A stretch of 64,000 bases of DNA from Dudresnaya verticillata (GCA_977862235.1 OZ374557.1:992001-1056000), one strand, 5' to 3'; shown: positions 4,478-39,025, counted from the first letter of the stretch. Notes: generated by a model from the sequence alone, not told the origin. Numbers and translations are program-made.

Positions 4478-4495
4478 TGGTCTCCCGACCTAGAA
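4478..4495 (+). other. 18-nt primer-binding site TGGTCTCCCGACCTAGAA (A1)
   Basis: 5 nt after the LTR-terminal CA. The identical 18-mer follows LTRs at 20096, 38946 and 41748. Confidence 0.9.
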
Positions 4496-4620
4496 CACCG
4501 TCACGGTTGGAAGAAACAGCCGTCGAAATCCGCTACGGTAGGAATTCGGCTGTACCGACAACCCGTTACGGAATATTGGATAGACAAGCAAGAACAACCG
4601 TTGTGTTCCGTTAAGGTATC

Positions 4621-14514: not shown

Positions 14515-17500
14515 TTGCTCCGTTGAGTCACTTCGGCACGGCGACGGAGAAACAAACAATAGCCGAGGGTCAAGAAAAAGATACAAAAAATACAAAAACA
14601 TTGCAAAAACAAGAAAAAGAACAAAACGAGAGAGTAGTAGGTAGTATAAAAGTATGTGCATTTTCACCATACAAAAAGAGAAGGAAGTCCAGGCGACAAG
14701 CATTGTTGGTATACAATGGGACAGTACGAAGCGGTACCAGTAAATTCCATTGCAAGACGCTGGTAGACTCTGGTTGTGAAGAAATAGTAATGTCAAAGAA
14801 ATACGCAGACGCGTTGGAACTGCAGAGAGAAAAGACTGATCTCAACGTAGAATTATGGGACCAGACACTTGTTCCGATGGAAAGGGGTGTGGAGGATCTG
14901 GAATTGCGGATTGGAGAGGCCGTTATAATGGTCAGACCATATATAGTTGATTGGATCGCTTACGACTTAATCCTAGGCAAGACGTGGCTTTCTGAAGCTA
15001 ATGCAATAATCAACTGGAAGTTGAACCCATGCTCCTTAAGCAAGGGGACAGATTAATAGCTCTGGACGCAGAGGCTTGTAATCATGGGGCATCCCTCCCG
15101 ACATATGTGCTTACAAGTAAACAATTTAAGAGATTAGTGAGAAGAGAAAAAAGTGTGATATATCACATATTGGTAAAGAACGCCAAAGAATAAGAAAAAG
15201 AAGCAGGTAATAGTCCTGGGAACCAAACAGGTAACAGCCCTGGAAGTGAAGCAGGTAATAGTCCTGAAAGTTCATCAGGTAATAGCCCTGAAGAAGATGA
15301 ATATAAAACAAAACTAAATAAAATATTGGCGGAGTACAAAGATGTATTCCCAGTCCAACTACCAAAGGGTCTACCCCCGGAGAGGGTAGTGGAGATGAAA
15401 ATAAACTTGGAAGAGGGTGTGAGACCCAAAATGGGACCACTCTACAAGTTATCAAAAACAGAACTTGAAGAGATGAAAAAACAATTAGAGGAAGCCCTCA
15501 CGCAAGGGTTCATCCGACCAAGCATCAGTCCTTGGGGCAGTCCAGTACTGTTCACTCCTAAAAAGGATGGAGGACTGAGAATGTGTATTGACTATAGGGC
15601 ACTGAACAAACAAACTATTAAAAACCAGGTTCCATTACCGAGAATTGATGAGGTGTGGGATCAGATTGGGGGAGCGCAATACTTCTCTACAGTGGATCTA
15701 AGATCAGGATATCACCAAATTCGAGTACATGAGAATGATATTGAAAAAGCTGCATTCCGCACAAGATACGGACAGTTTGAATATCTTGTAACACCATTTG
15801 GGTTAACTGGAGCATCAGGGTGTTTCCAGACTTTAATGAACATTATTTTCCAACCCTATTTGGACAAATTCGTACTAGTGTACTTGGACGATATACTTAT
15901 CTACAGTAAGACAAAAGAAGAACACCTAGAACATATCAAAGTAGTGTTGAAATTACTTAGAGAAAATAAGCTTTATGGGAAACTATCAAAGTGTGAGTTC
16001 CTAAAACAGAATCTAGAATATTTAGGCCACATAATAAGTGATCGAGGAATACAAGTTGACCAAAGAAAAATCAAAGCAGTACAGAAATGGGAAGTTCCCG
16101 AAACCGTAACACAAGTCCAGAGTTTTCTAGGACTTTTCAATTATTACAGGAGGTTCGTGAAGAATTTGCTACTATCGCAACTCCTTTAACGGAGCTGACG
16201 AAAAATAAAAATGCCTTTGTGTGGGGTGAAAAAGAACAAATTGCCTTTGAACCGTTAAAAGAAGCTTTAACGAAAACACCTGTGTTACGTTGTGCAGACC
16301 CAGGTTTACCCTACGATATAACAGCTGACGCTTCTGGGACAGGAATAGGAGCTGTATTATCACAAAAAGATGAACTGGGAATCCGACCAGTGGCTTATGC
16401 ATCAAGGAAATTGAATCCTGCAGAGCAAGGTTACAGTACCCATGAGCGAGAGCTATTAGCTATTGTGTATGCATTACAGACGTGGAGATCTTATCTACAT
16501 GGAGCTAAGTTCAAAATACATACAGATCACCATCCACGGAAGTACTTGGATACACAAAAGACCCTATCACGTAAACAAGCGAGGTGGGTTGAGTTTATGC
16601 AAGAGTTTGATTACGAAGTACACTATATCAAGGGAAAAGAAAACAAAGTCGCAGACGCTCTCTCTAGGAAGTACAAGGAAGTGTATAAGACATCCACCTC
16701 CTTCATATCAAAATTAATGACGATAACTACCGTATCCGTCTCAGAGCGGGTGCTTAAACGATTAGAAAAGGAGTATCTCGAAGACGAGAAATTTAAAGAA
16801 CATTACAATAAGCCATCAGAACCGTATAAGCGGAAGGACAAGAGACTTTATTTCGAAAATAGATTATGCCTACCAGAAGGCGAGACAAGAAAAACAGTGC
16901 TACATGATAACCATGAGTCCTTAATTGGAGCACACCGAGGTTACAAACGGACGCTTCATAATATATCGAGCCATTACTTCTGGCCAAACATGAAAAAGGA
17001 AGTTTACAACTATGTAAAGAGTTGCCAGAGGTGCCAAGAATCGAAAAGCAGAAACCAAAAGGCGCCAGGAACTAGTCGACCATTCCCTCCGCCAACACGT
17101 AAGTGGGAGGAAATATCCATTGACTTCATTTTTGACCTACCTAAGACGAAACGGAACAAAAACGCCATCATGGTTGTGGTGGACAAATTATCGAAACGAG
17201 CGCACTTTATCGCTCTAGAACCCAACTTTAACGGATTCAACGCTGCGCAGGTATTTTACGAGGAAGTATACAAACATCATGGAATACCGAAAAAATTATA
17301 TCAGATAGAGATACCCGCTTTACGGGGACATTTTGGCAAGAGCTGATGAAATTGCTGCAAGTTAAGCTGAATCTTTCAACCGCATTTCATCCACAGACAG
17401 ATGGCCAATCCGAGCGAGCGTTTAGGACGCTTGAAGAAATGTTGAGATGCTTCATCTCTAGTACACAGAAAGATTGGGACAAATACCTACCCGGAGTTGA

Positions 17501-18164
17501 ATTTGCATACAACAACTATACAAACGAGACAACCAAAAACAAGCCTTTCTATTTGGAATACGGACAACATCCATTAACAGTTTCCGATATACTACATACG
17601 GAACACTCAGTTAATGACCAATCCCAAACCTTCTTGGAGGACATGAAGAAGGCAAACGAGATCGCCCAACAAGCAATTAGAGATACAAACTTGCATACAC
17701 AGGACACAGAAAATGGAAACGAAAAACAATACGAAGTCGGAGACCACGTGATGTTATCAACTAAGAACCTACCCAAACCACTCGGTAAAACCAAGACATT
17801 CCTTCCGAAGTTCATTGGTCCATTCACCATCGTTAACAAAGTAGCTGACGGCAGAGCCTATCGACTAGAACTGCCATCCGAATATAAGGAGCTACATCCT
17901 ACATTTCATATTTCGTTACTCAAGCCTTATATGGACGACCAACATTAGAGAAATGTTCCAAAAAAGCTTCATTTAGGAAGATCACCTACAGGAAGACGCA
18001 TTGAGAAGATCGTCGCACACCGCCTACATGAAGGTCAAGTCGAGTTTCTAGTGCATTTTAGCAACACTGATGCCATTGAAAACACATGGTTACCTGAAAA
18101 CGAAGTCGCACAGCTTCCAGCGCTTATCCATAACTACTTCAACAAGTTATTCGAGGACGAGTAA
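14505..18164 (+). pseudogene. pol: B pol: protease, RT, RNase H, integrase with GPF motif, chromodomain
   Basis: LVDSGC; RMCIDYR, GYHQIR, YLDD; ADASG, ERELLA; HRG..CQRC, IDFIF, QSER; PKFIGPF; IEKIVAHR..FLVHF..NTWLP. Several frameshifts and stops. Confidence 0.95.
15200..15295 (+). repeat. Four 24-bp tandem repeats in the B protease-RT spacer
   Basis: Core CAGGTAAYAGYCCTG repeated four times at 24-bp spacing, encoding xxGNSPx. Confidence 0.8.
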
Positions 18165-20208
18165 GACAATTAAGAGGGGAGGAGTTGTTACAAACAGTAA
18201 CAAAACTGCACAGTGGCAAAATTACAAAGCGCCATAATAGCAGCTGACCTCAGCAATGTTTAATGAATTTTCAATCTACAAACGTGTTAGTCTTTATTGT
18301 AGTCTTTTACTTAGTCTATTGATTAAGTGCTAGTTTTAATAAGTTCCATCGAGCTTTCTCTAACTACCAAAATTCTATAAAGGAGGTCTGCTCTCGACTC
18401 TCGTAGAGAAAGGGGGCAAGCCGCAAAAGTCTGAAGCAAAAACTTCTGAGTCGGCGAGTCCAAGCAGTGTGTCAAAAGAACCGCGTGCTTCATCAACCAC
18501 CCAAGAAACCCAACAGTAAGTTTATTCATTACAGTGCTATCTGAGCCGCGACAAACACTACCTCCACGGGGTGCTAGAGCAGTTCTCACCGAGACGGGAG
18601 AACAGCTAGCGGCTAACCGAGACGGATATTGGGAAGCAACAGACAAGGGGGTGGTACAAGTGCCGGGACGGACTCAGTAACGGTGGTGGTGGTAGACCGC
18701 AATGGGCTCGGCGCGGGGAAAACCGTAAAGGATTGGGCTAAGGTTGCTTACCCGTTTACCTTAGGAGCCGCTGCGGTGCCGTCCTGATATACAAGTCAGG
18801 GTGGTACCGAGCGGTCCGGTCCGTGGGGGCCAGACCCTAGTGGTCTGGTCCTATGGTGGAATCGGCCCTGCTGGTCCCAATCTCCGACACGGACATGCGC
18901 AGCATTCTCATTGGCTGGCGCACTACTCTACATACTGTACATATACTCACTAAAAATAAAGAATAAACACTACAAATACTCCACTTCGGTTGGTGCGCTC
19001 CACTGCTGCACAGCAATGTACGCCAGCACACAACAATGCACCCAAAACCGACACGGGTACACGTGCACACATCCCACAACGGTTCAGGCCACACTATATG
19101 CATTTCCATCGTTTCGGATGCCGAATCTCACTTCACCACAGACCCCTCCTTAAATGGCGCCACGTCCTCGTGCGCCCACCTTCAAGGGGTTGCGGCTTGG
19201 GTCCGACGCACCGTCATCGGATTCGAGCAGCTTTTCCAGGTCCTTCGTCAACTGGTCTACTGCCGCCACGGTTTGCTTCGATGCGTTGGGAAACCCCACG
19301 CACCTCCAATACCAGGACTTCCGTCACGGAGAATAACCAAAACGCGCTTGACGCGAGTGTCGCGAGCCATCCGCAAGGATTTCTTGCCCAGGCTGGTCGC
19401 CAGTCTTCTGCCTCATAAAACATCCGCAACGGGTTCCTCCAGTGTGTCAGCGGAGCAGACGCCAGATCTTACCCCTCTTTCACCGTAACGGGAGTGCAAT
19501 CCAGACACCTCACAGACAGCCGCATTTGCAAAAATCCGACATGGGGGTCCTACCACACATAACGGAGCAAACCCTCTGTAATACAGTGAAGGGCTTACAG
19601 AAATGGGCCCTCTGCACCCCTGTATGCGGGGAAATAGCGTTACCTATAGGGCGCCAGCAGGGACAAGATGGGTAGTCTATGATTGGTCCAAGTGTCACCC
19701 TGCAGGTCAGTAGCTTAGTATCTGCCTATTTATTTTAGAAATTAAGCTTAGGATAGGGGCGTGTATATAGCCCAGTATGAGGGGTGCTGCCTGACAGTCG
19801 GAGTACCATATAAGGGTATCTCCCGTAGCGGTCACTGAACAGTAAAGGTAAGCACCTTCCGGCCCCAACTACGTCTCCAAGCTATCGGCTCCGCAGCACA
19901 CTTGTCACTCGTGCCCGGTTAACCACCCGCCCAGTGAACTACCTTCAGTATCGTGCTTCCAATCAGGTTACGTGCCCTCGTCTACCCTCTGGGTTCCTCC
20001 CGCTCTACCACCGCTACCAGGTACCCGCTCTGTGGCTTTCTCATTGAGTGCACTCTTTGAGTTCACAAGAGACCTAAAAGGCACTTCCTTACATCTGGTC
20101 TCCCGACCTAGAACTTCAAGATTGGTGAGCCGTTAAGAGGACGACGAATATCGTAACCCAATTGGATACTGAAGAAAATCAACCCACCAAGGCCCCTGTT
20201 ACTCCAAG

Positions 20209-22225
20209 ATGTCAACTCACTCTCAAAGTAGTTCCCGTCGTGGTCAGAAGGCGGAGCAGACCCCATTGGTCCCCCCAGTTGAGGACCCGGAGTCTTTGCT
20301 CCACCCTCCGAGAACTCCTGGAGTAGAAAAAGAGGAACCGCCTGGTCAAGCATCCACCAATCCCGTAACAGGTAAACCCTTAGCAGGTCCTTCCAAAGAA
20401 GTCGCAAGGCAGCCTCCGCTACATTCCAACCGTAACCATTGGGTCAATACTGATCTGATGCCCCGTCTGATCAACTGGCTACATGATGAGTTGACCCTTC
20501 GGTTACCTCAAACGGTTGAACCACTAGTGGGACACTTTCTAGAAGAACAAGGTCCAAGGACACTCTCGGAGTTTGCCGCCACGGCTACTGACAAGGTAGT
20601 CCAGTCATGGACCACCCAGCCGGACAGTAGCCCAATCTATGGGATGCTTACCAAAATGGTTCCCCCGTTGGTCTCTCAGTCTCTCGAGGCCTATGGGCAA
20701 GCAGCGGACCCTTCAACTGGACCAAAGTCTATACCCACAGGGGAAACCAAAGTGGAAAAGAAGGAGGATGATGTCGTCCCTCCTGGCATCGTTCTACGAA
20801 CCGAAACTGGTGATACAAACAAGAAACCCGAAGGGGGTTTTTCGGACTCCGAAGGTAGTAAGAGTAACCGACATGGATCGAAGTCCAAGAATTCTAAAAA
20901 GAAGAAGAAGGACAAACACAAGAAAAATAAGAAGAAACATTACTCATCTGAGTCTGACGCATCGTCAGTTACCTCAGATGGTTCAAGTTCGGATGATTCA
21001 TCCGATGCTGACCGACGGCGTCGCCGCCGGTCGTCTAAGTCCACAAGGGTGAGGGGGATTAAACCCCTCAACGACCTATTTACCAGAGTGGTTAGCTTTC
21101 AAAGTTACCGATTAGACAACCGCTCAAGGCTTTACTCTTCGAGAATCTCTCGGAAAGTAGATACCTACTATAAGAGGATGGCTATTCAGATGCCACCCTC
21201 TCGGTTTCGGTGTAGACCCGATTAACATCTTGGGTTTCCTTGCAAGGTTCAAGGATGCCTGTAATCACAATGATGTCCATGAAGGAGCTGCCGTTTGGTT
21301 ACTACAATACTTTATGACAGGCACCGCAAGGGACAACCTTCAGGCGAGGTTACAGACAAGAACCAGTATGGTCGTGGACTCCGAAGATGAGGGAGATTTG
21401 TTGACAACGTACCCCGAAGTGGTTAATTACCTTTTGGAAACTTATGCCACCGATGAGGTTATTGCGCTAGCCTATGCTGACGTAATCTCGTTGCGACAAG
21501 CAGAAGGAAAACGGAACGGGACTTCGCAGAGTTTTGTAAGAGCCAGAGCTCGCCGTTGCGGGTCGGTGTTTACAGAACACCGCCTCAAGGCGATCTTCGT
21601 TGATGGGCTCCTCCCGAGTATCCGTGCACCGGTTCGTAACCGGTTGGCTTCTTCAAAGAGTTTTTCCTATACGCAGATCACACAATATGCACAAGACCTT
21701 GGGGAAGCTCATAGGAGTACACGTGGGACGACAAACCTAAAAGGTAAAAGGGGAGTAATTCCCGTCGCCGCGGTTAGCTTCGAGAAACCACCGTCTCACT
21801 CCGCGAGGACGTCGACAGCTACCTCCAAGGGTTTACCGGGCATGGAAGACACTCATGAAGAGGAGATTTTCCAACTCGGTGAAGATTTATTCAACCAGTC
21901 TATGACACCCCCGTCTTCAATATCCACAGTGGGATCCCGAGATGGTGCACCGATACGGGCATGTTGGATCTGTGCTAACCCAGGCCATATGGAACATGAA
22001 TGTCCATTGGTAACCCCCGCGGTGCGCGCTGGCATAATTGCTTCCAGAAGGCAAAACCTCTATGGTTTAGCTAGAGCCCGAGCCATGCCAGGTAATCGAC
22101 AAGGTAACCCCGGGGCCTCCTCCTCAACAGGCCATCCGGGGCCCATCCAGGCTAAACGCACGGGATCACCCTCAGTGGAGCCCTCAAAGGCCGCTCAAGG
22201 AGTTTCCATTGCGGAAAACGTGTAG
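20209..22225 (+). pseudogene. gag: C gag (one frameshift ~21210)
   Basis: Homologous to A gag (LGFLARFKDACN..EGAAVWLLQYF, YATDEVIA). CCHC knuckle CWICANPGHMEHEC. Confidence 0.88.
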
Positions 22226-25200
22226 GAGGAGGCATAACGACGCATGCCCCCTCCCCAAATATGCGCCTTCCAGAACCGGTGTTACGACCCGATATCGTGG
22301 ATAACCAGGAGAGTGATGACTATGATGAAGTATGTTTACTTAAGAAGCAAAAATACAAAGTGGATCTATCGTTAGGGGTCTGGTCGTCTCAGATGATATC
22401 CGCAAGGGGCGTGATTGATTCTGGCGCCGGACCCAATCTGGTTGATGTTAAAATGTTACCTAATGGTTGGGAAAAGCGAGCCAAACCCTATAAGGAAACC
22501 ACGCGTAGCATCGTCGACGCTTCTAATAATCGAATATTACCTCTAGGAGTCATCCCCTTATATATCCGTGTCGGTAATCTCTATACGAAGACCCATTTTC
22601 TGGTTGTGGCTAATATGCCTGCCGAAGTTATACTTGGAACAGCCTTCATAGATCGACATGTCACAGCCATCATGCCGGGACCCCGAAGGTTACTCTTGAA
22701 GGATGCCCCAGCAGTACCTATCCTCGGTGTTTCCATGGGAGGGGTTACTGTTCCCGGCGCTACACAACCAACAGTTTCTACCAAAGTGAGAATAGCCAAA
22801 GACTGGGTCATACCTCCTAGGTCACGTTCGTTCGTGCCGGTGAGAACCAGCGCCTCTGGATTATGCCTGGTTCATAATACCCCGCGGTCACTACACAAGT
22901 CGTTAACCATTATGGCAAACGGGATCAGGGATGTTCTTCCGATGGAAGTTTTTCCTGTGCTAATGACCAATTTTGGTGATCGCCCTGCTCGCTTGAACAA
23001 GACTCAAGTAGTAGGCCATGTGTTACCAAGACCGGATCAGGTTTTGAGTATTGGAACTCTACAATAAGATCCCCGGTCGGATACCCCGGGGGAGAACTCA
23101 AAAGCGGAATCCGGTTGGGAAGACACTGTCCATATAGGTGTCGAAGACAGTGCTACTCGATCCCAAATAATGGAAAGGCTTCAAGAGTATCAAGAAATGT
23201 GGTCAGGCCAACTGGGGACCATTAAGGCCACTCAGCACAGGGTTGAGTTGATGGAAGGGGGAAAACCCATCTATCAACACCCTTACAGAGCTGACCCTAA
23301 AGCTCGAGAAGCCGAAAAGGCGGAAGTACAACGAATGTTACGCGAAGGCGTTATTGAACCCTCTGGGGCAGAATGGGCCAGTCCTGTAGTCCTTGTGTCC
23401 AAACCTGATGGGTCTCTGCGTTTTTGCGTCGACTATCGTCGACTTAATAGTATTACTCGACGAGATTCATATCCGTTACCTCCAATGGACGAATGTATCG
23501 ACTCACTGGGAGATGCTAAGGTATTTACGACGCTCGACTGTAATAGTGACTATTGGCAAGTTGAAGTCGATCCCGACGATCGCGATAAGACGACGTTCAC
23601 CTGCCACGAAGGGTTATACCGTTTTATCAGGATGCCATTTGGTCTCAAGAATGCGCCCGCCACATTCCAACGGACAGTCGACATTATGCTATCTCGATGC
23701 AAGTGGCAATACGCTTTGGTTTACCTCGACGACGTTATCGTGTACTCTCGGAGTATTAATGACCACTTCAACCATTTAGGTACTGTGCTTGATCTACTAA
23801 GAACCGCTGGGGTTTCTCTTAAGTTGTCTAAGTGTAAGTTCTTCGAAGCGTCCGTCGATTACCTCGGCCATATCATACGCCCAGGAAAGCTTGAAGTCGC
23901 CTCCAAGAACGTTACCGCACTAGGCCAGGCGAAACCTACCACGGATCAAACCGAGTTAAGGTCATTTCTTGGAGTATGTAACGTCTATCGACGTTTCGTC
24001 CCCAATTATGCACGAATTGCGTCTCCCCTCTCCAGGAAACTTCGCAAGGATCAACCCTTCACTTTTGAGTCACTCACAGAGGATGAGTACGACGCCTTCG
24101 ACGAACTCCGGCGTCGTCTTTTAACGGCACCCATATTGGCGTTACCTCGAAAGGGATTCCGTTATTATGTTGATACCGATGCGTGCGACCTTCAGGTTGG
24201 CTGTTGCTTACTTCAAGAAACAGAACAAGGGGATAAGCTGCCTATTGGTTATTGGAGTCGCACTCTTAATTCCGCCGAGCGTAATTATTCGGCCACCGAA
24301 CGGGAATGTCTCGCCGTTGTATGGAGTCCTTTAACACTCCGACCTTACCTTGAAGGTGACCGCTTTACGGTTAGAACCGACCACGAACCTCTTCAGTGGT
24401 TGTTAAACCTCTCGGATGCATCGGATCGCCTAGCACGTTGGCGATTAAGACTCTCGGAGTTCGACTTCCTAGTCACCTACAATCCTGGAAGGGAACATCA
24501 TTTGGCGGACACCATGTCACGGCTTTCGACTATAGGGAGTGACCAAACACCATTAGATGATGACATCCCCTGTTTTACCCTCGCGGTTGAAAATAGCACC
24601 CCGCTTCAGCTTAATTTACCTACCGTCCGTGACTTGGCAAACCAAAAAGGTTTACCCCGTCAGGTTAGTAAGCAAGAACTCCTCGGGGCACAATAAAGGG
24701 ATGAGTACTGCCAAAAGATGGCTAACCAAGTTGGTATCGCTGGCTCTCAATTTCAGTGGGACCATAATGGTTTTCTAATCCGCCAAGCGACACTCAATGG
24801 AGCACTTCAGATAGTGGTGCCAAAGTCCCTGCGTCCCCGCATCCTATACTTAGCCCACTATCCTCTCCTTTCTGGACACCCTGGTGGTTCAAGAATGTAT
24901 TATACCCTCCGGCGACAGTTTTATTGGCCGTATATGGCTAATGACGCATATGCCGTTATGGGTGACTGTACTAAGTGTGTCCAAAATCAGGGTACCTTAC
25001 GGAAACATCAGAACTACCTTAAGCTATTTCCCGCCGCTGGGCCACTGGAATTCCTTGCTATGGATCTCGCGGGGCCTTTTCCAAAAACAGAACACGGCAA
25101 CCGTTTCGTCTTGGTTATTACCGATCGGTTTTCTAAGCTTACACGCGCCATACCTTTACGGAATACCAATGCCCGCACGGTTGCGCAAGCTTTTCTGGAC

Positions 25201-26200
25201 CACTGGGTCTACCCTTACGGTGTTCCGTTATATGTGCTTTCCGATAATGGTCCACAGTTCGTGTCAAAGTTCTTTGCCACGATCTGCCAAACCCTGGGGT
25301 TACGGCAGCTATTCACAACCGCTTACCACCCCCAGACCAATGGACAGGTCGAACGGTTCAATAAGACTCTCGTCCAGCGGTTACGTCATTACGTCGCAGA
25401 TCATCAGCGTGACTGGGACAGTTACGTGCATCTGCTTACCTATGCGTATAACCTTCAGGTTCACCGCTCTACGGGTACCTCACCCTTCGATCTCGTCCTA
25501 TCCCGGCAACCTTCGGTTATACCTCTACAGGGTTCTCCCACAACGGGCTTTACCAATCAGTTGGATTCTCAACTCACCGCTGCTTCTGTTAAGCTTTTAA
25601 CCATTCAGAAACTTCGACAGGCTATTGCTACCGCTAAGGTCACCATCACGGCTGCCCAACAACGTTACAAATCTGCCTTTGACACCTCCGTGGCACGGCC
25701 CTTCTCGGTTACTGTTGGTGATTGGGTCTACCTCGATCGCCCTAAGTTCACTAAACGCCAAGTGGGTGAACTACAGGCATCTCTCGTGGACCCCGTTGAG
25801 GAACAGAACCTTTCGAGGAAACTTTTGCCCAAAGCGACCGGACCCTTTTTGGTTACCGCCGTTCATGCCAGCCATACGGTTACTATTACGTAATATGGGC
25901 TTTTTAATACCGTTTCACAAGACCGCATTTCGGTTGACCCTCATCGTGGTCCCCGCGCCCCTCTGGACGACCCTGAGCTTACTCAGGATCCCCCATCGGC
26001 TCCTCCGCCGCCTACGGCGACCGCCCACTCGGATTACTATACAGTTGACCATTTGGTTAAGCACCGTGTCACTGACCGTGGGTACCAATATAAGGTTCGC
26101 TGGTATGGTTAAGCCCCTAACGACGATACTTGGGAGCCACCCGCGCACATCCCTCTCAATTTTGTGTTACGCTACTGGCGCCGGCTTGACAAGACGCCAC
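22213..26200 (+). pseudogene. pol: C pol: protease, RT, RNase H, integrase, chromodomain (several in-frame stops)
   Basis: IDSGA; RFCVDYR, YLDD; TDACD; HPG..CTKC, MDLAGP, SDNG, QVERFN; ATGPF; YKVRWYG..DTWEP. Stops at 23065, 24694, 25891 and 26110. Confidence 0.95.
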
Positions 26201-26836
26201 CGCCTGGAGCTGGGGGTGTGGACTTCGTGCATTTTCGCAGGCTTCATGGGCTTTCGCGGACTCCAAAGTATCTCGTGAAGCGTCACTTAGGGAGTTAGCG
26301 TCACCCAATCAAAAGGTCTCGCGACGGCGTTATCTCCTAGAGTCAAAATGGAACAGCACCAAGTCTCTCTCCCTTCACTTTCTCTATTTATTTTACGCTA
26401 CTTACCTACAGTACTACTGTACTCTCATAGAAACCAAGACAAAGGAGAACCACTCAGGGAGATATGACACAAGACACAAGATGTTTATTGGACACTCTTC
26501 AGATCACCCTTGAGGTTCATCTATTAGGAATACCTACTGGTAACGGGAACGTTTCTCAGCCAACTCCTCGACGTCAGCGGAACGTGAAGACGCACAGCGA
26601 CGGGGCTGAAAAGGGGAAGCCCGACGAGTCGCCGCAGGCGTAGTAACTACAGGAGTCGCCTCGCGCAACGCCACCCGACTCCCTGATACCACGGGAGAAG
26701 CCCTACTGGTAGCAACCCCGGTAGAAAGGGGCTACGTTACCTTATAGGTCGAGGGGCCAGCGGGAGTCTCCTTAGGCTGTCCCCCCATAACCACGTTGGT
26801 AAGGTCCGCAGGGGCAGCGGATTGCTGTTCAGCTCC

Positions 26837-28638
26837 CTAAGTCCGCCCCGGCGATACCAGAGCCAAAGGGTCACCCGGTTGGTAGTTCACCACTTGATCA
26901 AGGGAGCTGGCCGCGCCACGGGCTATAGTCACCGGCTGGAGATCGCTCTTGCGCAATACCTCTCGGGTGAACTTATTGCAAGAAGTAACAAAACTCGTGG
27001 CGTTCTGTGGCATCGCAGCCGCCATACTTGCAAGAGACGCCCTGAGGGTTGCTCCTTCGGTTCCCAAACGGTCCATTGTCGCCATGTAGATACCCCGCTG
27101 GTTCACTTGAAAGTTTCCCATCTGGGCCACCTCCCGGAGTAAGCAAGTCAGGAGTGCCTCCTTCGACACACACTCCCGAGCGGCATCCAGAGCATCCTCT
27201 AAGGTAGCCGGCACCGGAATTTTCGCAGCGCGACACGCCTCTTGAAGTCGCCCAACCCGAAGGTGAACCGAGGCCGGTAGAGTCGCTACGGATGGGACCG
27301 TCGTTGTACCCGAGGGACCACTCGGTGAGACCAATGGGTTAGCGCGCTGAGTCGCGGCCTCAGGAGTTACCGTCGGGGGTCTGCCCATGGAGGTTGCTCG
27401 CGCGGGTGTCGCCGGACGCGCCTCACGCATTTGTGTTACTGTCCCCGGTGCCGCCTGTGGCTTTGGTGTCCCTGGACGCGCCCCAATGCCTCGGCGCTCG
27501 GTCCCCACTGGAATCGCATGTCCTGGCACCGCACGTGTCCTGTCGGGGTAACCACTATAGGTTGGCGCCTCCTCTTCTTCTACCACTTGGTTCCTCTCAG
27601 AGTTCGGCCCCATGTGGCCCCAGCCCCGACCTATACCCTCTTCCTCCTCAAAGGAGTAAAGCGGCGGACCAGGACGGTCATCAACGTTGTGTCGCCTACC
27701 AAATCGGCCCACCGCTTCGGAAACCTCGGCATCATATGCGACCCAAACCTCGCCGGCGTTCCACTTGAAGGTCTCCGATGCGGTTAACAGTCCCGCCAAG
27801 TCACCACCTGAAAAGGTACTACCTCCACAAATGAGGTCAACCCCAAGGGTGCGGATTGACTCAATGAGTGTCTTGGACAAGCGGAAGAGGCGACCATCCG
27901 GTAGACCATCTTGGGCATGGTAACCAGCTTCGGTGTAGGGCGTTGAGTCCCACATACCAAAATAGGCTGCCTGAAGAAAGGCCAGCGCTACGTGGAGTAC
28001 CTGCTCGGTTTTGGCGATTGACCACACTGGGTAATACCACCTCACCGAACTGTCACGCACATGGGCACCGAAGTACGCCAACACTCCCGGAGTTAACGAC
28101 GGCAATGAGCGCGGACCCTCGATGGCGTGCCACCAGCTGGGTTTCCTCACGTAGTGATCCCGACGCCGACCCATGGGGATATTCCACATTTCAACATTGT
28201 GAAACCCCGCTAGGAGACCATCGGTACGGTTGCGAATACGAGTCTCCGTCCAGATATCCACTGCCCACCGCTCGGTTAACCACCAAAGTTCGGGAAAAGG
28301 CTTCGACTCCAGGAGTGACTGGGGAAATAACTTGATTTCGTTCACCCACTGGTTACCCTCAAGGAAGCGGTAGAGCGAGGGGATGTAGTCTTCTTCAAAC
28401 CCGACACGCAGCCACTTGAGGTCACTACGGTAGTGATTCGGAATAAGGACGCTCGGCGGACAGTGACCCAACGCGCAACCCACTGGTTCTCGCGCTTACC
28501 CTCGGGGATCGCCCGGAAGCGGTAGGTGTCCGGATGGGTGTCCACGAGGTAACCTTGGAGTGGAAACTGCTCCAGCACCTCCTGATTGGAAAACGCCGAC
28601 AAACCGCCGTGGCTACCTATGGGGGAAGACTGGGCCAT
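26837..28638 (-). CDS. Antisense accessory ORF of element C, unknown function (~600 codons, one frameshift ~28475)
   Basis: 548-codon open frame plus an upstream frame from ATG 28638 (MAQSSPIG..). Trp/Tyr-rich globular-looking N-terminal half, P/A/T linker, helical-looking C-terminus. Lies between pol and the 3' LTR. Confidence 0.65.
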
Positions 28639-29984
28639 CGCGGCGTAGTAACGTCCGCGGCTTACGCAAGGCGTGACTGCAAAAAGACCACGTCGGGGTT
28701 GGAGAGACGACGACGACGGGGTGGTGAACGGCGTGGTGTTGGTTGCGGTTGACGTGGGACCATGTTGGAAAACCCTTTGAGGTAATGCTGCTGCGGAAGA
28801 GAAGTACTGCTGCACGCGGGATCGATTGCCGGCCGACGACGGTCATGGGCGTCGAGCCGTCTGGATACCAAACGGTTATGATTTCGCGCGAAACACGTGC
28901 AGTCTGCCCTGGCGTCCCGAGGACAGGCCGCAATCTCGGGGGGAGCTCTGTAATACAGTGAAGGGCTTACAAAAATGGGCCCTCTGCACCCGTGTATGCG
29001 CGGAAATAGCGTTACCTATAGGGCGCCAGCAGGGACAAGATGGGTAGTCTATGATTGGTCCAAGTGTCACCCTGCAGGTCAGTAGCTTAGTATCTGCCTA
29101 TTTATTTTAGAAATTATAGCTTAGGATAGGGGCGTGTATATAGCCCAGTATGAGGGGTGCTGCCTGACAGTCGGAGTACCATATAAGGGTATCTCCCGTA
29201 GCGGTCACTGAACAGTAAAGGTAAGCACCTTCCGGCCCCAACTACGTCTCCAAGCTATCGGCACCGCAGCACACTTGTCACTCGTGCCCGGTTAACCACC
29301 CGCCCAGTGAACTACCTTCAGTATCGTGCTTCCAATCAGGTTACGTGCCCTCGTCTACCCTCTGGGTTCCTCCCGCTCTCCAACCGCTACCAGGTACCCG
29401 CTCTGTGGCTTTCTCATTGAGTGCACTCTTTGAGGTCACAAGAGACCTAAAAGGAACTTCCTCACACACTCTTAGAGAGTGTTGCTCTCACCGCAGCGGA
29501 ATAAGTTTCCCCAACGGTCTGCTCGAACGCGCAGTCGATTACGCTCCCATATCCACAATGGACAATTCGTACTCCGATCGGATGACGGTACTTCACACCC
29601 GCTACCTCCTGACGGAAGTTGTTCCGACTTGGGTAGCGAGAAGTTGGGGGGCTAGGTACCCCACAAACCGTCGCAGGCGGCGTGTTTCAGGAATCCGTAG
29701 CGGTTACAGGCGAATACCTTCACCCCTGCCCTTATGAGACACACCACGAACCTCTCCCTCTTGAGATGAACCCAACCCGCGACGGTGTTAATATATTATT
29801 TTCAATATAATAATATATTGAAAATATTAATATTAACATCACTATTAATATATACCCCGGGACTCTGAGAAGAATAATGAGACTGAGGAGTTTTCCTGTA
29901 CTGTCGCGGAAGGGGCCGTTCTTGGCCCAAACGTGCTGGGGCGGCCGCCCATCGCAAGAAAAAGGCGTGCCCCTCCCAGAATGG

Positions 29985-32900
29985 CTACGACGAACACCGT
30001 AACGGCTCTGTCGAGGTGTCCAGAGCGCGTTCCGTGACGGAATAGTGCCGCGGAAGCGGTGAAACCTCGGCGGATTCGTAGGTGTCCTGATCCGGAGGGT
30101 AGCCGTACCAGCGGACTTTGTACGTCATCCCAGTCGGTTCGTCACGGTGACCGACAATCTTGTCGATCACATATTCCGTATCGGCTTGCAGTGGTTCCGT
30201 CGCGGAGTAGTACCTTCTGATTGAGGGACTACTGTAGTACCTTCTGGATTTGGCACTACTTCTCCGTAGACGGTTGATGGCGTGACAGGCGGCATTATCA
30301 AGGGTGCCGGCTGAACCGCAACTCCGATCGGAAACTTCGTGATGCGATCGGTACTTACTGGGATCAATACCCCTTCCTTGCGGATTGTAACGACATGTTC
30401 CGTTGCGGATTCCACTTCATAAGGCCCCGTGGCTCTCGGAAGGAGTTTCTTCATTTCTTGAGCCACCTCGCCCACATCATCCGGTTTGCCTTCCAATCGG
30501 TCCCGCTCACGGCGTTCGGCAGGCCGCAAGTTATGGGGCGGCCGGTCGACATAGACTTGATCTCCGCTACGGATTATGGCCCTAAAGCGCACCTTACGGT
30601 CAAACAGTGCCTTGGCCTTTTGTTGAGCCACCGTCTGCTTAGTGTGCGCTGTCTGGAGCGCATACCGTAAACGGCGCATGGTGCTCCGCTTCTTTAGCAC
30701 CAGGGTCATACGCCCTTCCGTAACGGCTTCTTGATGCTCGACAGGAGCCCCTCGTACAACAATACCCGATGGGTGGCGTGTCAGCACCAAATCAAATGGC
30801 GTTGTTTCCGTAATACGGTGTACCTGCATCTTGTACGCATATGTCAACAGTTGCAGGTACAAATCCCAATCGGAGTGATGATCCTCAACGTAATGGCGCA
30901 AACGTTGGGCGATTGTCTTATAAAATCGCTCAGCTTGCCCACTTGTCTGCGGATGGTAGGCAGCGGTGAGCAGGTGCCTGACTCCGAGTAAGGAACACAC
31001 TGCGTCAAAGGACTTAGCAGTAAACTGCGGTCCGTTATCGGTTAGGACAAATTGGGGTGCGCCATACGCATACACCCAAAAGTCCAGGAAGGCGTTAGCC
31101 ACCACAACGGCTGTTGTTGTCCGTAACGGAATACAGCGCGTCAGCTTAGAGAACCGATCGGTTATTACTAGAACGTGGACATAACCCCGTTTTGTCTTCG
31201 GAAGTGGCCCGAGAATGTCGATAGCGACAAACTCCAAAGGTCCGCTAGCGGGGAAACTTTTCATAAATCTTTGATTCCGAAAGCGGGTTCCCTTTGTCTT
31301 CACGCAGGAGCGACATGTCCGAACGGATTCAAATACATCGTTGGCCATATAAGGCCAATAATAATCCTGTCGGAGTGTATAATACATCTTAATTCCGCCT
31401 GGGTGACCCGACATCAGGGTGTAGTGGGATAAATACAATACCCGTCCACGGAGCTCGCTTGGCACCACCTTCTGCAGAGCACCATCCAATTGGGACTTGC
31501 GTACCAAGAATCCGTTACGGTCATAGTCAAACTGTGATCCAGGGGAGCCTACCGTATCGGCTTTGAGACGGCAGAAAGGGTCTCTGGCTTGCGCTTCAAG
31601 GAACGCCTCCCTGGTAATTGTCTCATCCTTAACGTCGGATTCTTGAATTACAGTAAACCGTGACGGTATTGCGTCGGGCTTGTCAGGGGAGGCGGATGCA
31701 CTCCCACTGGCGGGCGCCACGGCGCATATTACGTTATTTTCCGTATCGGTTTCTTGTGATGTAGCCCAATCGGTTAAATAAACTCCATGCTCATATAATC
31801 TGTCGACGGTGTTTTCGGCGACAAAGCAAGGTATTTCTTCATCCAAAGGTCTATCGTCACCGCCATCCGTTCGGAGTCGCGACATCCCATCGGCGAGTTG
31901 ATGCTTAATTACAGGACGGTATTGCACCTCGAATTCAAATTCCGATAGGCGGAGCCTCCACCTGGCTAGGTGGCCAGATGAGTCTGCGAGGTTCGGGATC
32001 CACCGCAGGGCATCGTGATCCGTTCGGAGAATAAACTTATCACCGTAAAGGTAAGCTCGGAGTGTTAACATGCTCCAGACCACGGCTAAGCATTCCTTTT
32101 CGGTTGTCGTATAAGTTTTCTCCGCATCGGTGAGGCTTCTGCTCCAGTATCCAATAGGGAAGTGGTCGCCATTCGGTTGTTCCTGCAGAAGGACACAGCC
32201 GACTTGATGGTCACATGCGTCAGTGTCCAACGTATATTTATATCCGTGACGGGGTAGAGCCAATATAGGTGGAGAGATAAGGCGTCTCTTCAGTTCCTCG
32301 AAGGCTTCATATTCCGTATCGGATAATATTCCAAACTCAAAGGGTGAGCCCTTGCCGGGTTTCTTATTTAGCGGTGCTGAAATCCGAGAGAAGTTGGGTA
32401 CAAAGCGACGATACACGTTGCACATTCCCAAGAAGGATCGCAATTCCGTTTGGTTAGCCGGCGGCTTCGCGACCTTAATGGATTGGATATTCCGATTATC
32501 CACTTCTAATTTTCCGGGACGGATAACATGCCCCAGGTATTGTACAGACGCGTTGAAGAAGTCACACTTTGACAATTTCAACGTTACCCCAGCGGATCGT
32601 AAAAGTGTAAGGACTTCCTTCAGGTGGTGGAAATGTTCTGTAACGGTTTTTGAGTAGACAATTACATCGTCTAGGTAGACGAGGGCAAATTGCCATTTAA
32701 CCGTAGAAAGGATTATATCCACTGCCCGTTGGAAGGTTGCCGGTGCATTTTTCAATCCGAATGGCATTCTCCGACAATGGTATAAGCCAAAATGGCTAGT
32801 GAAGGTAGTTTTGTCCCTTTCCTCTTCCGGAATCTCGACTTGACAATATCCGCTATTGCAATCCAGGGTGGTAAATACAGTAGCTTCCCCAAGGGAATCC

Positions 32901-34300
32901 ATGCACTCATCCATCCTGGGCAAGGGATATGAGTCCCTAACCGTTACGGAATTGAGACTTCTATAGTCCACACAGAACCGCATGGTGCCGTCCTTTTTTA
33001 GAACGAAAACCACGGGGCTGGCTCACTCCGATGAGGCTGGTTCAATTACCTTAGCGGAAAGAATGCGGTCGATCTCTGTCTTTTCGAAATCTCGCTGCTT
33101 ATGTCCGGCACGGTATGGGGCTTGATATACTGGCTTCGCTCCGGACGTTAACTCGATGCGGTGCTTGGTAGCTGTAACGTTGCCAAGATCGCCACTCCAC
33201 ATCGACTTATATTCCTCGAGTAGGGTTAAAATCCAATTACGGAGCGATGCTTCTTCTGTGCCGATCTGGACTTGATCCTTCCAGTCGGTAGTATTTGTAT
33301 TTTCCGTTACGGGTTTGCTTACTTCCTCGTCGTGAGGGGAGATGCTGCTGGCGTTTTCGGAGGTAGGGTGAGAATTAAATGATTAAATAATTCCTCCCCC
33401 CTCCTTAAATGGAGGTATACCGTCAACGGTAAAAATAGCAGAAGGGGCAGCAGTAGCAAGGCCCATGACAGTAGATTTGGGCAACCGTACTGGCTTGTTA
33501 GAAAAATTAGAGACCCAGATCCGAGACGGTTTGTTAGGTACAACATCCATAATACCATTAGCCATTAACGTAAGGTGCTTAAAAGCCGGCTTAGGATGAT
33601 TTTGTAGAATGCATAACCCACCCGTGGGGGTATTAACCGTTACGGAGGTTTGAGTCATAGGGGGAATAAGGGTAGATCTTGCTAAACGAATTTTCTGAGA
33701 AACCGTAGCGGCGGATAGAGATGAGGGCTGTAGGGTTGCGGCGTTACCCGTCTTCGGATTTTTGGCTTGACCAACAAGGGATACCGGTGGGTAATGATGA
33801 AAAACAACTTTCCGTAACGGAGGGAGGATTGCCTTCACGTAGCGGTCGATGAAGGTAGTTCCCAAAATACAGGGAGCCGCCAAGTTCGCGACCACTAGAA
33901 AATGGACGCGAACACGGAGCTCTCCGATACGGACGAAAAGTTGGATCTGACCAAGAGGGCGTATAGCGCGATTAGACGCATCCCGTAATGGAGGACTGGC
34001 TGCTGGGCGTATGAGTGGGAGCCATTGCCACGGAAGGCGCCTGGTACTAATGAGATTGGGCCCAGCGCCAGAGTCCAAGACGGAGATTAAAGGAAGCATC
34101 ACGCTATCTGTCCGTCCCACGGTAATTTGCATCTTGTAATTTTGATGTTGCATAAAGCAGGTAGTATCATTGGTCTGATAAGCCAATGGGAGTTCCGTAA
34201 CGGTATCTCGCCGATCCCCTGGCGGGTCCACACTCGAGAGAGGTGGAACGCCGTGAGGCGGGGATGGCGGCGCCCTTACGCATCCCCCTTTGAGTTTTCC
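29985..34300 (-). pseudogene. pol: A2 pol (stops ~33383 and ~33022; chromodomain truncated by deletion)
   Basis: 948-aa RT-RH-IN frame 30167-33013 and protease frame 33383-34231, near-identical to A1. Confidence 0.95.
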
Positions 34301-36590
34301 GAATTCAAGGTTGCACCGGTCGGATCCGCCTCCATGGGCTCGCGCAATTCTGCGAGTTCCATTCCGTCATGGTCCTCCACCGATAGTATCGGGGCATTCC
34401 GTTGCGGAGGGGGCGTATGCGGCCTGCCCCGATTCCCTTGTGGATTCGAACTGGTGCCTACTACGAACCTGCGGCCGACAGGGTAACGCTTCTGGAAGTT
34501 GCGCTCGCGCTCTTCCATAAGCCTAACCCGATCGGAGTCATGTATCCATGGGCAAACAACGTGCTCTGGCGAAAGGCAGATGCGACAGTTACCACTTCCG
34601 TAAAGGCGTCGGACCCGAGGATCCGACTCATCCCGTAGCGGAGGTGCTGGTTGCTACTGTTCTCTCCCGTCGTGGGCATTATTTCCGTAATGGTGACTCG
34701 GCTGCTGTTGGGGGCCAGGAGCCGGGCGAGATCCACCATAGAGGGGACCTTGCGCGCGTGGCATCCTGGGCGGAGTAGGATGGACGCTTTGCGGGGGCGA
34801 GGAGTACGGGGTAGAAAAGGTAACCCCCGTGCTCGTTCCCGTAGCGGCACCGTGGCCTCCCTCGACAGCTTAGACTTGAGCATCCGTAACGGAAGGATCT
34901 GCTTGCGGATCATAGTGTACATCCGAGACGGAGTCCAGCGATAACACCTTAGACGGGCGTGCTTTAGTGCGCCCATCAAAGACGTGAGCCGGAATGGTTT
35001 GGCGTCGAGCTGCCCGATGGGACTGACCCAGGCCAGTCGCATAGCGAGTGATGGCCTGATAATCCAACTGGGAATGCGTTGCTAGATAATTTCTCATCTG
35101 TTGACGAGTGCCCGGTAGGAGTCCTCCAACGAACAGTGACTTCAATGCCCGATCGGAAAATACTGTACCGCAACGGAGTGCCTTGGCCCAGAGCTGGTTC
35201 GAGTACTGCTCTTCCGTTATGGCGGGTGTTTGCCTGAAGTTGCTGACATCCGTATAGGCTTCAGCAATCACTTCATCCGTAGCGTAGGTTCTCAATAAAA
35301 GGTTCACCACCTCGGAATATGTGCGGAGCATCTCGGCCTGCTCCACGTCAACCGCCATGGTACCTCCAGCAAGCCTAGCCTGTAGAAGGGCTTCGGCCTG
35401 TCCTTTAAGGAAAAACTGGAAGCACCAGACGGCAACCCCTTCGGCGATGCCGTTGATGTTACAACCGTCACGGAACTTAGCGAGAAATCCCAAGATGGTA
35501 ATAGGGTCCGTCCCATCGAATGTATGGGACGAAATCTGGACGTCGAGTTTCTTCCGTATACGGCTCATGTTCTGTGAGAACTTAGAGCCGTAGGTCTTAC
35601 TCCTCTTATCCAATCGGTAGGTGCGGTAGTCCAGCGCCTTGACAAACTTGTCATGTAGCGGCCGGATTACCTTAACATTTCCGGATTTGGCACCGTGTTT
35701 TCTGGCCCGGTGCCTATTCTCTCTATCCGTTACGGAAGAACTCTCTGAGTCTGAATCCGTAGAGGTAGAGGAGTCATGCCTTTTTTCGCGTTTCCGCGAT
35801 CTTCTGTTTCTCCTCTTGCGGCGGCGGTGTTGGCTATCCTCTGAGCTGCTCTCATTGGATTCCATACCAGATTGGTGGCGTCATCGCTGGGTGTGGTCGC
35901 CCATGTGCGACCGACGGGGAGGGTCAGAGCGGGAGTGTCGGGCACCTCGTCTATGCCGACCTCGACCGGTCCTCCGACTCGGATGGGGTGAGCTGGACGC
36001 ATCGCTGAGATGGCCGCTGCCTCCACCTGATCGAACCGGAACGGTATAGCGCTCTTGCTGATAGCGCCCTGGCGTAGGCACATCTACGTGTCCAGGAGAA
36101 TGCCGTAACGGTGGCTGAGTGTGTGTTGGTCCCGTAGGGGCTTGTTGATGTTGAGAATCCGTTACGGGAGCCGGTGGCAGTGGCCCAGAGGGTACTATGC
36201 CCGGCGGAAATCCCATAACGGGTTTTTTTTGCGGCTGCTGCGTTCTTCCCTCGACCGGGAACTCATTCCGTAACGGTGGTTGCTCAGTGAAAGCTTCCGT
36301 AGCGGGAGGCCTTGCCATGCCGGGAGCAATCTGGCTCTCGAGCTCGGCGGCCACCTTTTCCTGTAGGATCAAAGCTTGCACTATCCGAGGAAAGTGCTGC
36401 TCCAGATAGGAATTAACCAAAGACGGAACAGTTTCCGAGAGGGATATCACCACCTCTTTTACCATTCCAGGTTGTACTTCCAATCGGAGATGCTCTAACA
36501 CCCGAGGAAGGACCTCCGACAGGACCCAGTGGACCCGATGGGATTCCGGCTTGGGTTGCGGAGCTGCCTTCTTGGAGGCGTCTGATCCGA
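34276..36590 (-). pseudogene. gag: A2 gag, 5'-truncated
   Basis: Near-identical to A1 gag. Fused at 36590/36591 to LTR sequence; the equivalent of A1 4375-4786 is missing. Confidence 0.9.
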
Positions 36591-37561
36591 TTCGCACCGA
36601 GACGGGAGAACAGCGAGCGGCTAACCGAGACGGATATTGGGAAGCAACAGACAAGGGGGTGGTACAAGTGCCGGGACGGACTCCGTAACGGTGGTGGTGG
36701 TAGACCGCAACGTGCTCGGCGCGGGGAAAACCGTAAAGGATTGGGCTAAGGTTGCTTACCCGTTTACCTTAGGAGCCGCTGCGGTGCCGTCCTGATATAC
36801 AAGTCAGGGTGGCACCGAGCGGTCCGGTCCATGGGGGCCAGACCCTACTGGTCTGGTCCTATGGTGGAATCGGCCCTGCTGGTCCCAATCTCCGACACGG
36901 ACCTGCGCAGCATTCTCATTGGCTGGCGCACTACTCTACATACTGTACATATACTCACTAAAAATAAAGAATAAATACTACAAATACTCCACTTCGGTTG
37001 GTGCGCTCCACTGCTGCACAGCAATGTACGCCAGCACACAACAATGCACTCAACACCGACACGGGTACACGTGGACACATCCCATACCAGTTCAGGCCAC
37101 ACTATATGCATTTCTACCGTTGCGGATGCCGAATCGCACTTCACCAAAGAAGCCCCTCCTTAAATGGCGCCACGTCGTCGTGCGCCCACCTTCGCGGAGT
37201 TGCAGCTGCGGTCCGACACCGTCAACGGATTCCAGAAGCTTTTCCAGGTCTCACTTCAACTGCTCTACTGCCGTCATGGTTTGCTTCGATGCTTTGGGAA
37301 ACTCCACGCACCTCCCATACCAGGACTTCTGTTACGGAGAATAATCAAAACGCGCTTGACGCGAGTGTCGCTCTTATCCGCAAGGGTTTCCTGTCCAGGC
37401 TGGTCGCCGTCTTCTGCCTCATAAAACAACCGCAACCGGTTCCTCCCGTGTGTCAGGGGAGCAGACGTTAGGACTTGTCTCACTTTCACCCTAACGGGAT
37501 TGCAATCCAGGCACCTCACAGACAGCTTCATTTGCAAAACTCCGACATGGGGGTCCTACCA
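36591..37561 (-). mobile_element. Element A3: 3' internal region, PPT and 3' LTR (36591-37148) of a more diverged A copy; LTR tip probably at 3178-3194
   Basis: This LTR is preceded on the minus strand by the PPT AAGGAGGGG and 3' sequence homologous to 19141-19556, so it is a 3' LTR and not A2's 5' LTR. Confidence 0.8.
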
Positions 37562-37636: not shown

Positions 37637-38164
37637 TGTAAGGCGCACGGCCTGTAAGTCGTGCGCGCCGGTGGTGACGGGTGGCGGATTATGGTGGCGG
37701 ATCTTCGCTACTGTACGCACTGTCAGACGCCCTTAATTTTAGTTACTTTTCGTTAATCCCTTCCCACGTGCCACGAATTGTCAAGTGGCTCGCTCCCTTC
37801 CCCTCTTCATTTGCGGCGCACCCGCGTGTACATAGTATATTAGGGCCCCGAGGTGCGCACTCATACAATAAACCAGCCAAGCTTGGGCCCAGCGAGACAC
37901 ACCCTCCTACCCTATCGACTCCGTCGCTAGGCTGGACTCCAGCGGGTACGCTACCCTTCTTCATCGTACAAAATCCTGTTTTTCCTTTATTTTTCCTTTG
38001 TTTTCTTTAAGGATTTCCTTTCTAGGGTATCCCCCTGCTTGGTCTCGTTTTGCTTTACAGTCGCGCTACGGGGCTATTCCCCTGCTCTACCGCTACTACC
38101 TCACCTGCTACCACCGGGCCATCGAACAGCCTGAGGTGCATCCTCTCACCTACCCCGTGGATTG
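37637..38164 (+). mobile_element. Possible LTR fragment of an unassigned family
   Basis: TGTAAG start shortly after a G-run, non-coding, with an AATAAA. No partner copy in the window. Confidence 0.3.
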
Positions 38165-39025
38165 TGTAGTATCTCGAAAGACACCACCGAGTCCGGCGCC
38201 GGAATGAGACCCCAAAGGATCAGGAAGACCTATCGGATTTCGTAGCAAACGGCCGAACGTAGAACGGACCTGCGCGCCGGTAGCAAGCGTGGTAGAGCGG
38301 GAGCGCGCAGACGAAGTCACGGCCAAAATCCTGGATGAGCAGTGGAAAATGCCAAGTTGGGAAAAGGTTGCAAAACTTTACTCCCAACCTCTGGCGGGAC
38401 GGCTTCGTACCTATCCTGGCCGAGCCGTAGTTTGTGGCCGTCTAAGTAGACCCTCAATCGGCCATTGGAGCTAATCTAGAGCTATTCTACAGTTAGTGGC
38501 CGAGGTTACTCCCCGTCGGCCACTACTTGTGTTTCGGTGTCGGGCCAATGTTATACCCTTACCAGACTAAACCAAGTACTTTTCCGTTAGTGGTTACCCA
38601 AAGGAGTTAGATTTTCCCTTGATTTTTCTGCTGCCTTCCTCTTGATTTCACTTGCGGCCAAATCCAATTTCCTCTTTTCACTTGTCTCCAGATCCGATCA
38701 CACTGATCACGCGTGTACAGCGGGCCACGTGGTGCGCTTGGGTGTCGTAGGTGGCCACGTGTGACACACGTGTACACTTGTTGGACACGTGCGTCTCTTG
38801 CGCATGTTCATTGGCGTCCGCCCGGCCGCACTGTCGTCGGTTGGGCAAACGTATCTTTTCGATTGGGCCGACTGTCCCACTTGGCCCGGCCGGTTGCGTC
38901 CGTTTCGGAGACCCCTTGGCGTTGCGTCACAGATTGCGCCACATTTGGTCTCCCGACCTAGAAGTTCGGAACTCCCGATTGGCTACCTCACTTACGCTAC
39001 GGAACTACACTGATCACGGCAATTA
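38165..39025 (+). mobile_element. Element E: 5' LTR (38165-38943) and PBS (38946-38963), truncated
   Basis: TGTAGT...CCACA followed by the shared 18-nt PBS. Inverted homology to 62947-63704. Confidence 0.75.

Follow-up and report, generated by a model that had tools for sequence, protein, structure and literature searches.

Genes on the antisense strand 3′ of pol have been described in Ty3/Gypsy retrotransposons. The plant 3′ antisense ORFs (aORF-3R) belong to Tat/Retand-type elements and include gene23 of maize Grande, that of rice RIRE2 and ORF4 of Silene Retand, as set out in the passages of PMC7264820 and PMC11963269 that treat them. The GENE23 protein of Grande is nuclear, and its gene has its own promoter (PMC7264820). 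The sections of PMC7264820 and PMC8365987 on Boty/BcGypsy1 of Botrytis cinerea describe an antisense gene in this element, brtn. What such 3′ antisense accessory ORFs do for LTR retrotransposons is treated as an open question (PMC7264820, PMC11963269). The Plavaka DNA transposons of red algae carry the accessory genes PAG1-3, which are mobile between TE families and of which PAG1 has no known domain, according to the part of bioRxiv 10.1101/2025.02.11.637652 devoted to them; the same part describes TE silencing in red seaweeds as unexplored.

Here we describe an antisense ORF in a Gypsy element, element C, within a 64,000-nucleotide stretch of DNA (the window). As with the plant aORF-3R, an antisense gene lies between pol and the 3′ LTR and is kept in most family members under selection. 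The initial annotation had likened the ORF to those of Grande, RIRE2 and Retand; the likeness holds for the layout and does not extend to the TRP28 domain, which is absent.

Element C and its antisense reading frame

The 64-kb window contains retrotransposons inserted into one another. Element C lies, inverted, in copy A2 of a further family (family A), about 16 bp from the A2 3′ LTR, and copy A1 carries the corresponding empty site. The features are as follows, in window coordinates.

3809–13104: family A copy A1
29467–37561 plus 18583–19571: family A copy A2
19577–29466: element C, Ty3/Gypsy LTR retrotransposon of 9.9 kb
19572–19576, plus strand: left target-site duplication CCCTC; the right copy, CACTC at 29467–29471, matches at 4 of 5 positions
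19577–20093, plus strand: 5′ LTR of element C, TG...CA, 517 bp, 98% identical to the 3′ LTR
From about 20096, 3′ of the 5′ LTR: putative PBS-like TGG... stretch
20173–22225, plus strand: gag region, two frames, weak zinc knuckle
22156–26298, plus strand: pol, with protease-like region, RT, RNase H, integrase and C-terminal chromodomain; four in-frame stops
26299–26533, minus strand: tail-to-tail spacer, AT-rich (43% GC), with minus-strand AATAAA at 26484–26489 and 26387–26392
26534–26836, minus strand: likely C-terminal tail of the accessory ORF, as judged from homologue C-termini; second TAG at 26734–26732, NLS-like KRSR near the end, final TAG at 26536–26534
26837–28495, minus strand: 552-codon stop-free frame (P0001), with the conserved domain at residues ~11–264 (28465–27725), a low-complexity linker and a small helical module at ~417–448
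28465–28638, minus strand: 5′ piece of the accessory gene in another frame, ATG at 28638, matching the N-terminal part of the family domain
28639–28948, minus strand: leader, 311 bp from 3′ LTR to ATG, including a polypurine-tract-like G run at 28934–28948 on the plus strand
28949–29466, plus strand: 3′ LTR of element C, with a palindromic TATATA at 29137; an antisense promoter may reside here

Element C is a Ty3/Gypsy LTR retrotransposon with a chromodomain integrase. Pfam places RVT_1, RT_RNaseH, Integrase_H2C2 and rve along pol in the Gypsy order. The Chromo match (E = 0.0023, on a stop-broken piece) falls under the curated cut-off, and PF00385 is present on many of the nearest integrase relatives; chromodomain Gypsy lineages outside the chromoviruses are known, as noted in the relevant passage of PMC12477816. 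Among named integrases, the closest come from Chondrus crispus and Agarophyton chilense, which suggests a florideophyte red alga as the likely host. The two gag frames overlap and pol begins in a third frame, through either a lesion or a programmed frameshift; the gag zinc knuckle (zf-CCHC, E = 0.0049) is under the Pfam cut-off.

Other residents of the window were also recorded. Element B (13104–18100) is a third Gypsy-type element, AT-richer, with a 24-bp tandem repeat at 15200–15290; it showed neither motif enrichment nor a match to the accessory ORF. By eye, ORF translations indicate two degraded Copia-like elements (44974–48964 and 54644–55255) and a minus-strand ORF like a pogo/Tigger-type DDE transposase (39406–40263), the latter near 75%-identical inverted segments at 38164–38924 and 62954–63705.

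The antisense ORF starts at the ATG at 28638, 311 bp from the LTR start at 28949, and runs for about 600 codons to the first TAG (26839–26837), in agreement with the distance of ~310 bp and the length initially annotated. The frameshift near 28465–28470 is real and falls inside the conserved domain: homologues switch frame there in tblastn, and the upstream piece scored E = 1.1e-6 with a profile built without window sequence. Past the TAGs at 26839–26837 and 26734–26732 the same minus frame resumes and reaches the TAG at 26536–26534, ending in EKRSRYQ, much as homologues end in KRxR. A basic motif of this kind closes 8 of 17 full-length homologues, and the accessory gene stops 0–190 nt from the pol stop in several intact relatives; the frame therefore probably ran originally to 26534, the 100-residue tail being placed by terminal motif and spacing and not by homology. 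This extended reading has three lesions in 701 codons, compared with four in 1380 for pol (at 23065, 24694, 25891 and 26110; binomial p = 0.69), and therefore this copy is as decayed as pol; even a single lesion would not differ significantly (p = 0.67). The frameshift and the four pol stops thus stand as first reported; the count of only one lesion gives way to two further TAGs if the frame ended at 26534, and the argument that the ORF is better kept than pol falls for this copy. The element C copy is probably no better preserved than its pol and, like it, likely dead.

The spacer offers hints of a transcript end. A minus-strand AATAAA at 26484–26489 is followed by a GU-rich stretch; the initial annotation had placed this signal at 26485–26490, and its other signal (26387–26392) and the AT-rich patch were correct. 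On the minus strand, T prevails in the spacer of all 11 measurable relatives (14 examined), with only +0.08 in the window itself; an AATAAA sits at the AT-richest spot in only 5 of 26 relatives, which all belong to one subclade. From these signals, the spacer is likely the 3′-end region of an antisense transcript, and it is plausible that the accessory gene has a transcript of its own.

Protein family, position and selection

We searched P0001 against 1.84 billion representative proteins with exhaustive phmmer and obtained 60 matches at E ≤ 1e-3, 11 of them at E ≤ 1e-10. One repeat protein (P0148), aligning with residues 464–518 only, was dropped. The 59 remaining homologues match within residues ~7–264, two of them extending further. 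Names were looked up for 30 of the 60 matches, and 3 of the 30 clusters were named: a Gracilaria changii transcriptome protein (P0122, from an assembly without stated strandedness) and hypothetical proteins of Gracilariopsis chorda, one cluster comprising four near-identical members. Such multi-copy "hypothetical proteins" of G. chorda are likely transposon genes, and some of the 59 homologues could lie outside LTR elements. Pfam found no domain in P0001, as the initial reading had it, or in the 59 homologues, save weak coiled-coil-type matches on two tails. The protein family is uncatalogued in the catalogues searched, and we found no red-algal description of this gene in the open literature, that is, outside subscription papers and Repbase.

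Full-length members have about 550–950 residues and consist of the conserved domain, a low-complexity linker, a helical module and often a terminal KRxR; in P0001, the module at ~417–448 is followed by a predicted helical or coiled-coil stretch. AlphaFold2 modelling of a natural homologue (P0123) from a 60-row alignment gave a mostly helical domain of ~320 residues (pLDDT 89.9, pTM 0.89), and the protein is thus predicted to fold, with an N-terminal domain of ~300–320 residues. Of 17 full-length homologues, 8 have an NLS-like motif within their final 20 residues and 9 have none there; among internal windows, 12 of 569 have one. The domain is rich in Arg (6–12%) and Trp (2–5%); its net charge averages +2.2 across 40 sequences, so that it is not strongly basic, and no DNA-binding motif was recognised in it. 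Conserved polar residues are D25, R30, E34, E84-R86-R88, H99-N100-E102 and E164 (P0001 numbering). The highest 19-residue hydropathy is 1.1 in P0001 and 1.1–2.2 in 10 homologues, mostly in a helix with a conserved Glu in the modelled domain. The orientation argues against an env-like ORF: env-like genes lie in sense, and this ORF runs antisense both in the window and in all relatives where it was located.

To ask where the gene occurs, loci were fetched with the integrase, and not the ORF, as the query: the best 80 of 578 metagenome-contig matches plus one viral contig (81 loci), and a second, integrase-selected set of 78 from genome contigs. The domain profile was built from protein homologues only, without window or locus sequences. 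It matched 22 of the 81 loci at E ≤ 1e-3; three rounds of iteration raised this to 28. The best E among 5197 ORFs of a reversed-ORF null was 0.5. Among the 31 loci with at least 2.5 kb 3′ of the integrase, 21 have a minus-strand match at E ≤ 1e-3 and 24 at E ≤ 1e-2, with none in 7. Every match lies 3′ of an integrase and on the strand opposite its pol; in L008 and L029, where the match is on the plus strand, it is part of an inverted neighbouring element. In L025 and L030, where both LTRs are present, the gene lies between integrase and 3′ LTR. The second set yielded antisense matches in L087 and L088 and no profile match in L083, L084 (2.3 kb flank) or 43 more distant loci with enough flank. 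Matches are spread over most subclades of the integrase tree.

Long antisense ORFs also occur in GC-rich subclades with at best a weak profile match (L049:8209–10740, L050:2325–3956, L061:11797–13323, and L009, L052 and L055). Those of L049 and L061, both among the seven non-matching loci, are clearly similar to that of the weakly matching L050, and the ORFs of these subclades are probably very divergent family members. Upstream of the accessory ORF of one locus (L026:5789–6324) lies a 57-bp tandem array recalling the Retand 3′ arrays. Loci L082–L088 and others of the genome-contig set are eukaryote-type Gypsy elements in contigs filed as bacterial MAGs, two of which carry the accessory gene; bin contamination is the likely source. 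The clade that carries the gene is probably red algal.

Selection was measured in 11 disjoint pairs of at least 50% identity, aligned at the DNA level; these and the conservation above concern related families and not other copies of element C. dN/dS is 0.12–0.55 in the gene frame and 0.89–2.82 in the remaining two frames of that strand; for the shadow plus-strand frame it is 0.28–0.59, a tie with the gene frame in 2 of the 11 pairs. Mismatches at codon positions 1, 2 and 3 are 0.163, 0.138 and 0.316. By these sequence measures the accessory gene is under purifying selection, and the integrase is under stronger constraint in most of the same pairs. Gene and integrase distances are correlated (Mantel rho 0.745 with n = 25, where none of 999 permutations exceeded 0.383), which shows inheritance together with the element and says nothing on physical interaction. 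Between subclades the gene diverges faster (distance 0.84, compared with 0.54 for the integrase). The initial annotation had proposed an accessory gene, which is strongly supported by the homologues, by the constancy of place and strand in related elements, by purifying selection and by divergence in step with the integrase; the ORF is conserved among relatives, and the dN/dS values speak against a captured host gene without selection. We conclude that this is, with little doubt, a conserved accessory gene family of a Ty3/Gypsy clade and not a chance frame.

Candidate functions of the accessory protein

We propose that the protein is a nuclear, trans-acting regulator of its own element, a reading to which we give a probability of about 0.5 as a whole. 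An antisense mRNA would start in or near the 3′ LTR and end in the tail-to-tail spacer. The predicted product, in which a mostly helical domain of ~320 residues is followed by a flexible linker, a small helical or coiled-coil module and, at the C-terminus, an NLS-like motif, would be imported into the nucleus by way of its NLS-like end. There it would act in trans on the DNA or chromatin of its own element, as a trans-activator or anti-silencing factor that keeps the element expressed. Judged from the sequences, a nuclear location is likely, and action on element DNA or chromatin stands near even odds. The architecture, the putative separate transcription unit, the fast divergence and the dispensability in cis fit a diffusible nuclear factor, for which the nuclear GENE23 of Grande is a precedent. 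Against the proposal stand the low net charge of the domain and its lack of a recognised DNA-binding motif, the 9 of 17 full-length homologues that do not end in an NLS-like motif, an AATAAA placed at the AT-richest spot in one subclade only, and palindromes that do not follow the gene. Dispensability follows from family A: its copies are 97% identical and it looks recently active, with no accessory gene in either window copy. Family A lies near C on the integrase tree (low support), with only ~0.5 kb from chromodomain to 3′ LTR (29468–29985), and is possibly a deletion lineage that lacks the accessory ORF.

Regulation at the level of DNA or chromatin is favoured over help with RNA export or with integration. 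An RNA chaperone of the Rev/CERV kind, which would bind genomic RNA in the nucleus and promote its export or packaging, suits the Arg/Trp-rich domain, the NLS-like tail and the helical module, and has precedents in CERV of Cer1, as far as PMC10309623 describes it, and in the retroviral accessory factors discussed in PMC7264820. No RNA-binding motif was recognised in P0001 or its homologues, however, and family A does without the gene in cis; we regard this role as unlikely.

The initial annotation had named the ORF as an obvious candidate reader of the family motif. In element C, GGT[AT]ACC-like words with at most one mismatch number 87, compared with 31±7 in dinucleotide shuffles, and the excess over synonymous shuffles is seen separately in gag (23 to 9), pol (33 to 17) and the accessory ORF (17 to 11.5). 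The GGTTACC arrays it envisaged proved to be eight exact GGT[AT]ACC words dispersed over 9.9 kb, and TRF found no tandem array in 26298–28948. Family A has 38 exact pseudo-palindromes CCGT[AT]ACGG, 22 of them in A1 and 16 in A2, that occur in LTR, gag and pol alike, with none elsewhere in the 64 kb; in a comparison with expectation for A2, 15 were observed and 0.14 expected. This palindrome is possibly the more striking feature of the window.

A new-fold nuclear protein could recognise such family palindromes, coding sequence included, and protect or activate the family in trans, with gene-less A exploiting it through its dense, perfect motif; the protein could come from A copies outside the window. 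In its favour are the two enrichments, the palindromes that some subclades were found to have of their own in a first scan, a protein divergence fast enough to suit changing targets, and the precedent of VANC in the pertinent part of PMC5735166. The strongest motif nonetheless resides in a family whose two window copies have no homologue, and palindromes do not track the gene: with more controls, the null is exceeded by 9 of the 18 elements that carry the gene and by 22 of the 46 distant ones (p = 0.18), some of the distant controls having strong palindromes as well. The link between gene and motif is therefore unsupported. Moreover, CCGTAACGG contains TAACGG, which we take to be a Myb-type site, and a host factor could therefore be the motif reader. 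We thus consider specific reading of the dispersed palindromes doubtful, and service to family A in trans, as a VANC-like reader, equally so.

Somewhat less probable again is a partner of integrase or Gag that helps the cDNA–integrase complex into the nucleus or in the choice of insertion site. Such a role has been proposed for plant antisense ORFs (PMC7264820), and would accord with the NLS-like C-terminus and with the tight co-divergence with integrase; yet physical linkage alone accounts for that co-divergence, the integrase already has a chromodomain, and the gene diverges far faster than the integrase between subclades. An enzyme acting on DNA or chromatin would explain the conserved polar residues, and red-algal DNA transposons carry modifying accessory enzymes, as reported in part of bioRxiv 2025.02.11.637652. 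No column is invariant over the 60 sequences, though, and in the part of the alignment columns compared, Pro, Trp and Leu make up most of the residues that the two sequence sets share, which makes an enzyme improbable; the companion idea of a recently captured host gene riding passively is ruled out by its presence in most subclades of the integrase tree together with purifying selection, and is contradicted by co-divergence. Finally, a frame open by chance in GC-rich DNA (the region has 58–60% GC, and GC-rich relatives have long spurious frames on both strands), or an antisense RNA that alone matters, is largely refuted by 552 codons against a longest frame of 337 in 1000 base shuffles of the region, by protein-level homology, by codon-position bias and by the confident predicted fold.

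The nuclear regulator acting on DNA or chromatin remains the reading we prefer, and the family is directly testable: naturally intact copies exist, the model is confident and selection can be measured. If it is correct, a TE-encoded nuclear regulator would provide a handle on TE silencing in red seaweeds; were palindrome reading true, the protein would be the equivalent of VANC in a retrotransposon.

Relation to known systems

The plant aORF-3R proteins have the TRP28 domain (PF04195), whereas the seaweed family has neither TRP28 nor another Pfam domain: TRP28 was absent from the Pfam matches of P0001 and the 60 phmmer matches, and from the 25 of 40 families listed at E ≤ 10. Retand is a non-chromovirus, while the host element here has a chromodomain integrase, and the tandem arrays in the 3′ region of Retand-type elements have no TRF-detected equivalent in 26298–28948 of element C. 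The hosts differ as well, being plants in one case and likely a red alga in the other. Boty, compared by description only, is likewise a Gypsy element from outside the plants that carries an additional antisense gene 3′ of pol, and its host is a fungus.

VANC, the anti-silencing protein of the Arabidopsis VANDAL elements, is similar as a fast-evolving TE accessory protein associated with family-specific short motifs, a functional analogy; no Pfam match in P0001 or the 60 matches points to VANC, while the fold searches leave room for a distant structural relationship. VANDALs are DNA transposons, and in the account given in part of PMC5735166 the VANC motifs are non-palindromic, tandem, non-coding arrays to which binding was shown. 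The motifs of the present elements are palindromes scattered over coding as well as other DNA, binding is putative, and co-occurrence of gene and motif was not found. PAG1 of Plavaka is, like the present gene, a red-algal TE accessory gene without a known domain; it comes from DNA transposons, and the two, compared by description only, might be the same gene. Thus, the arrangement is already known from Grande, Retand and Boty and the protein family is uncatalogued: a second, unrelated-looking family in the same antisense position, in another element lineage and other hosts.
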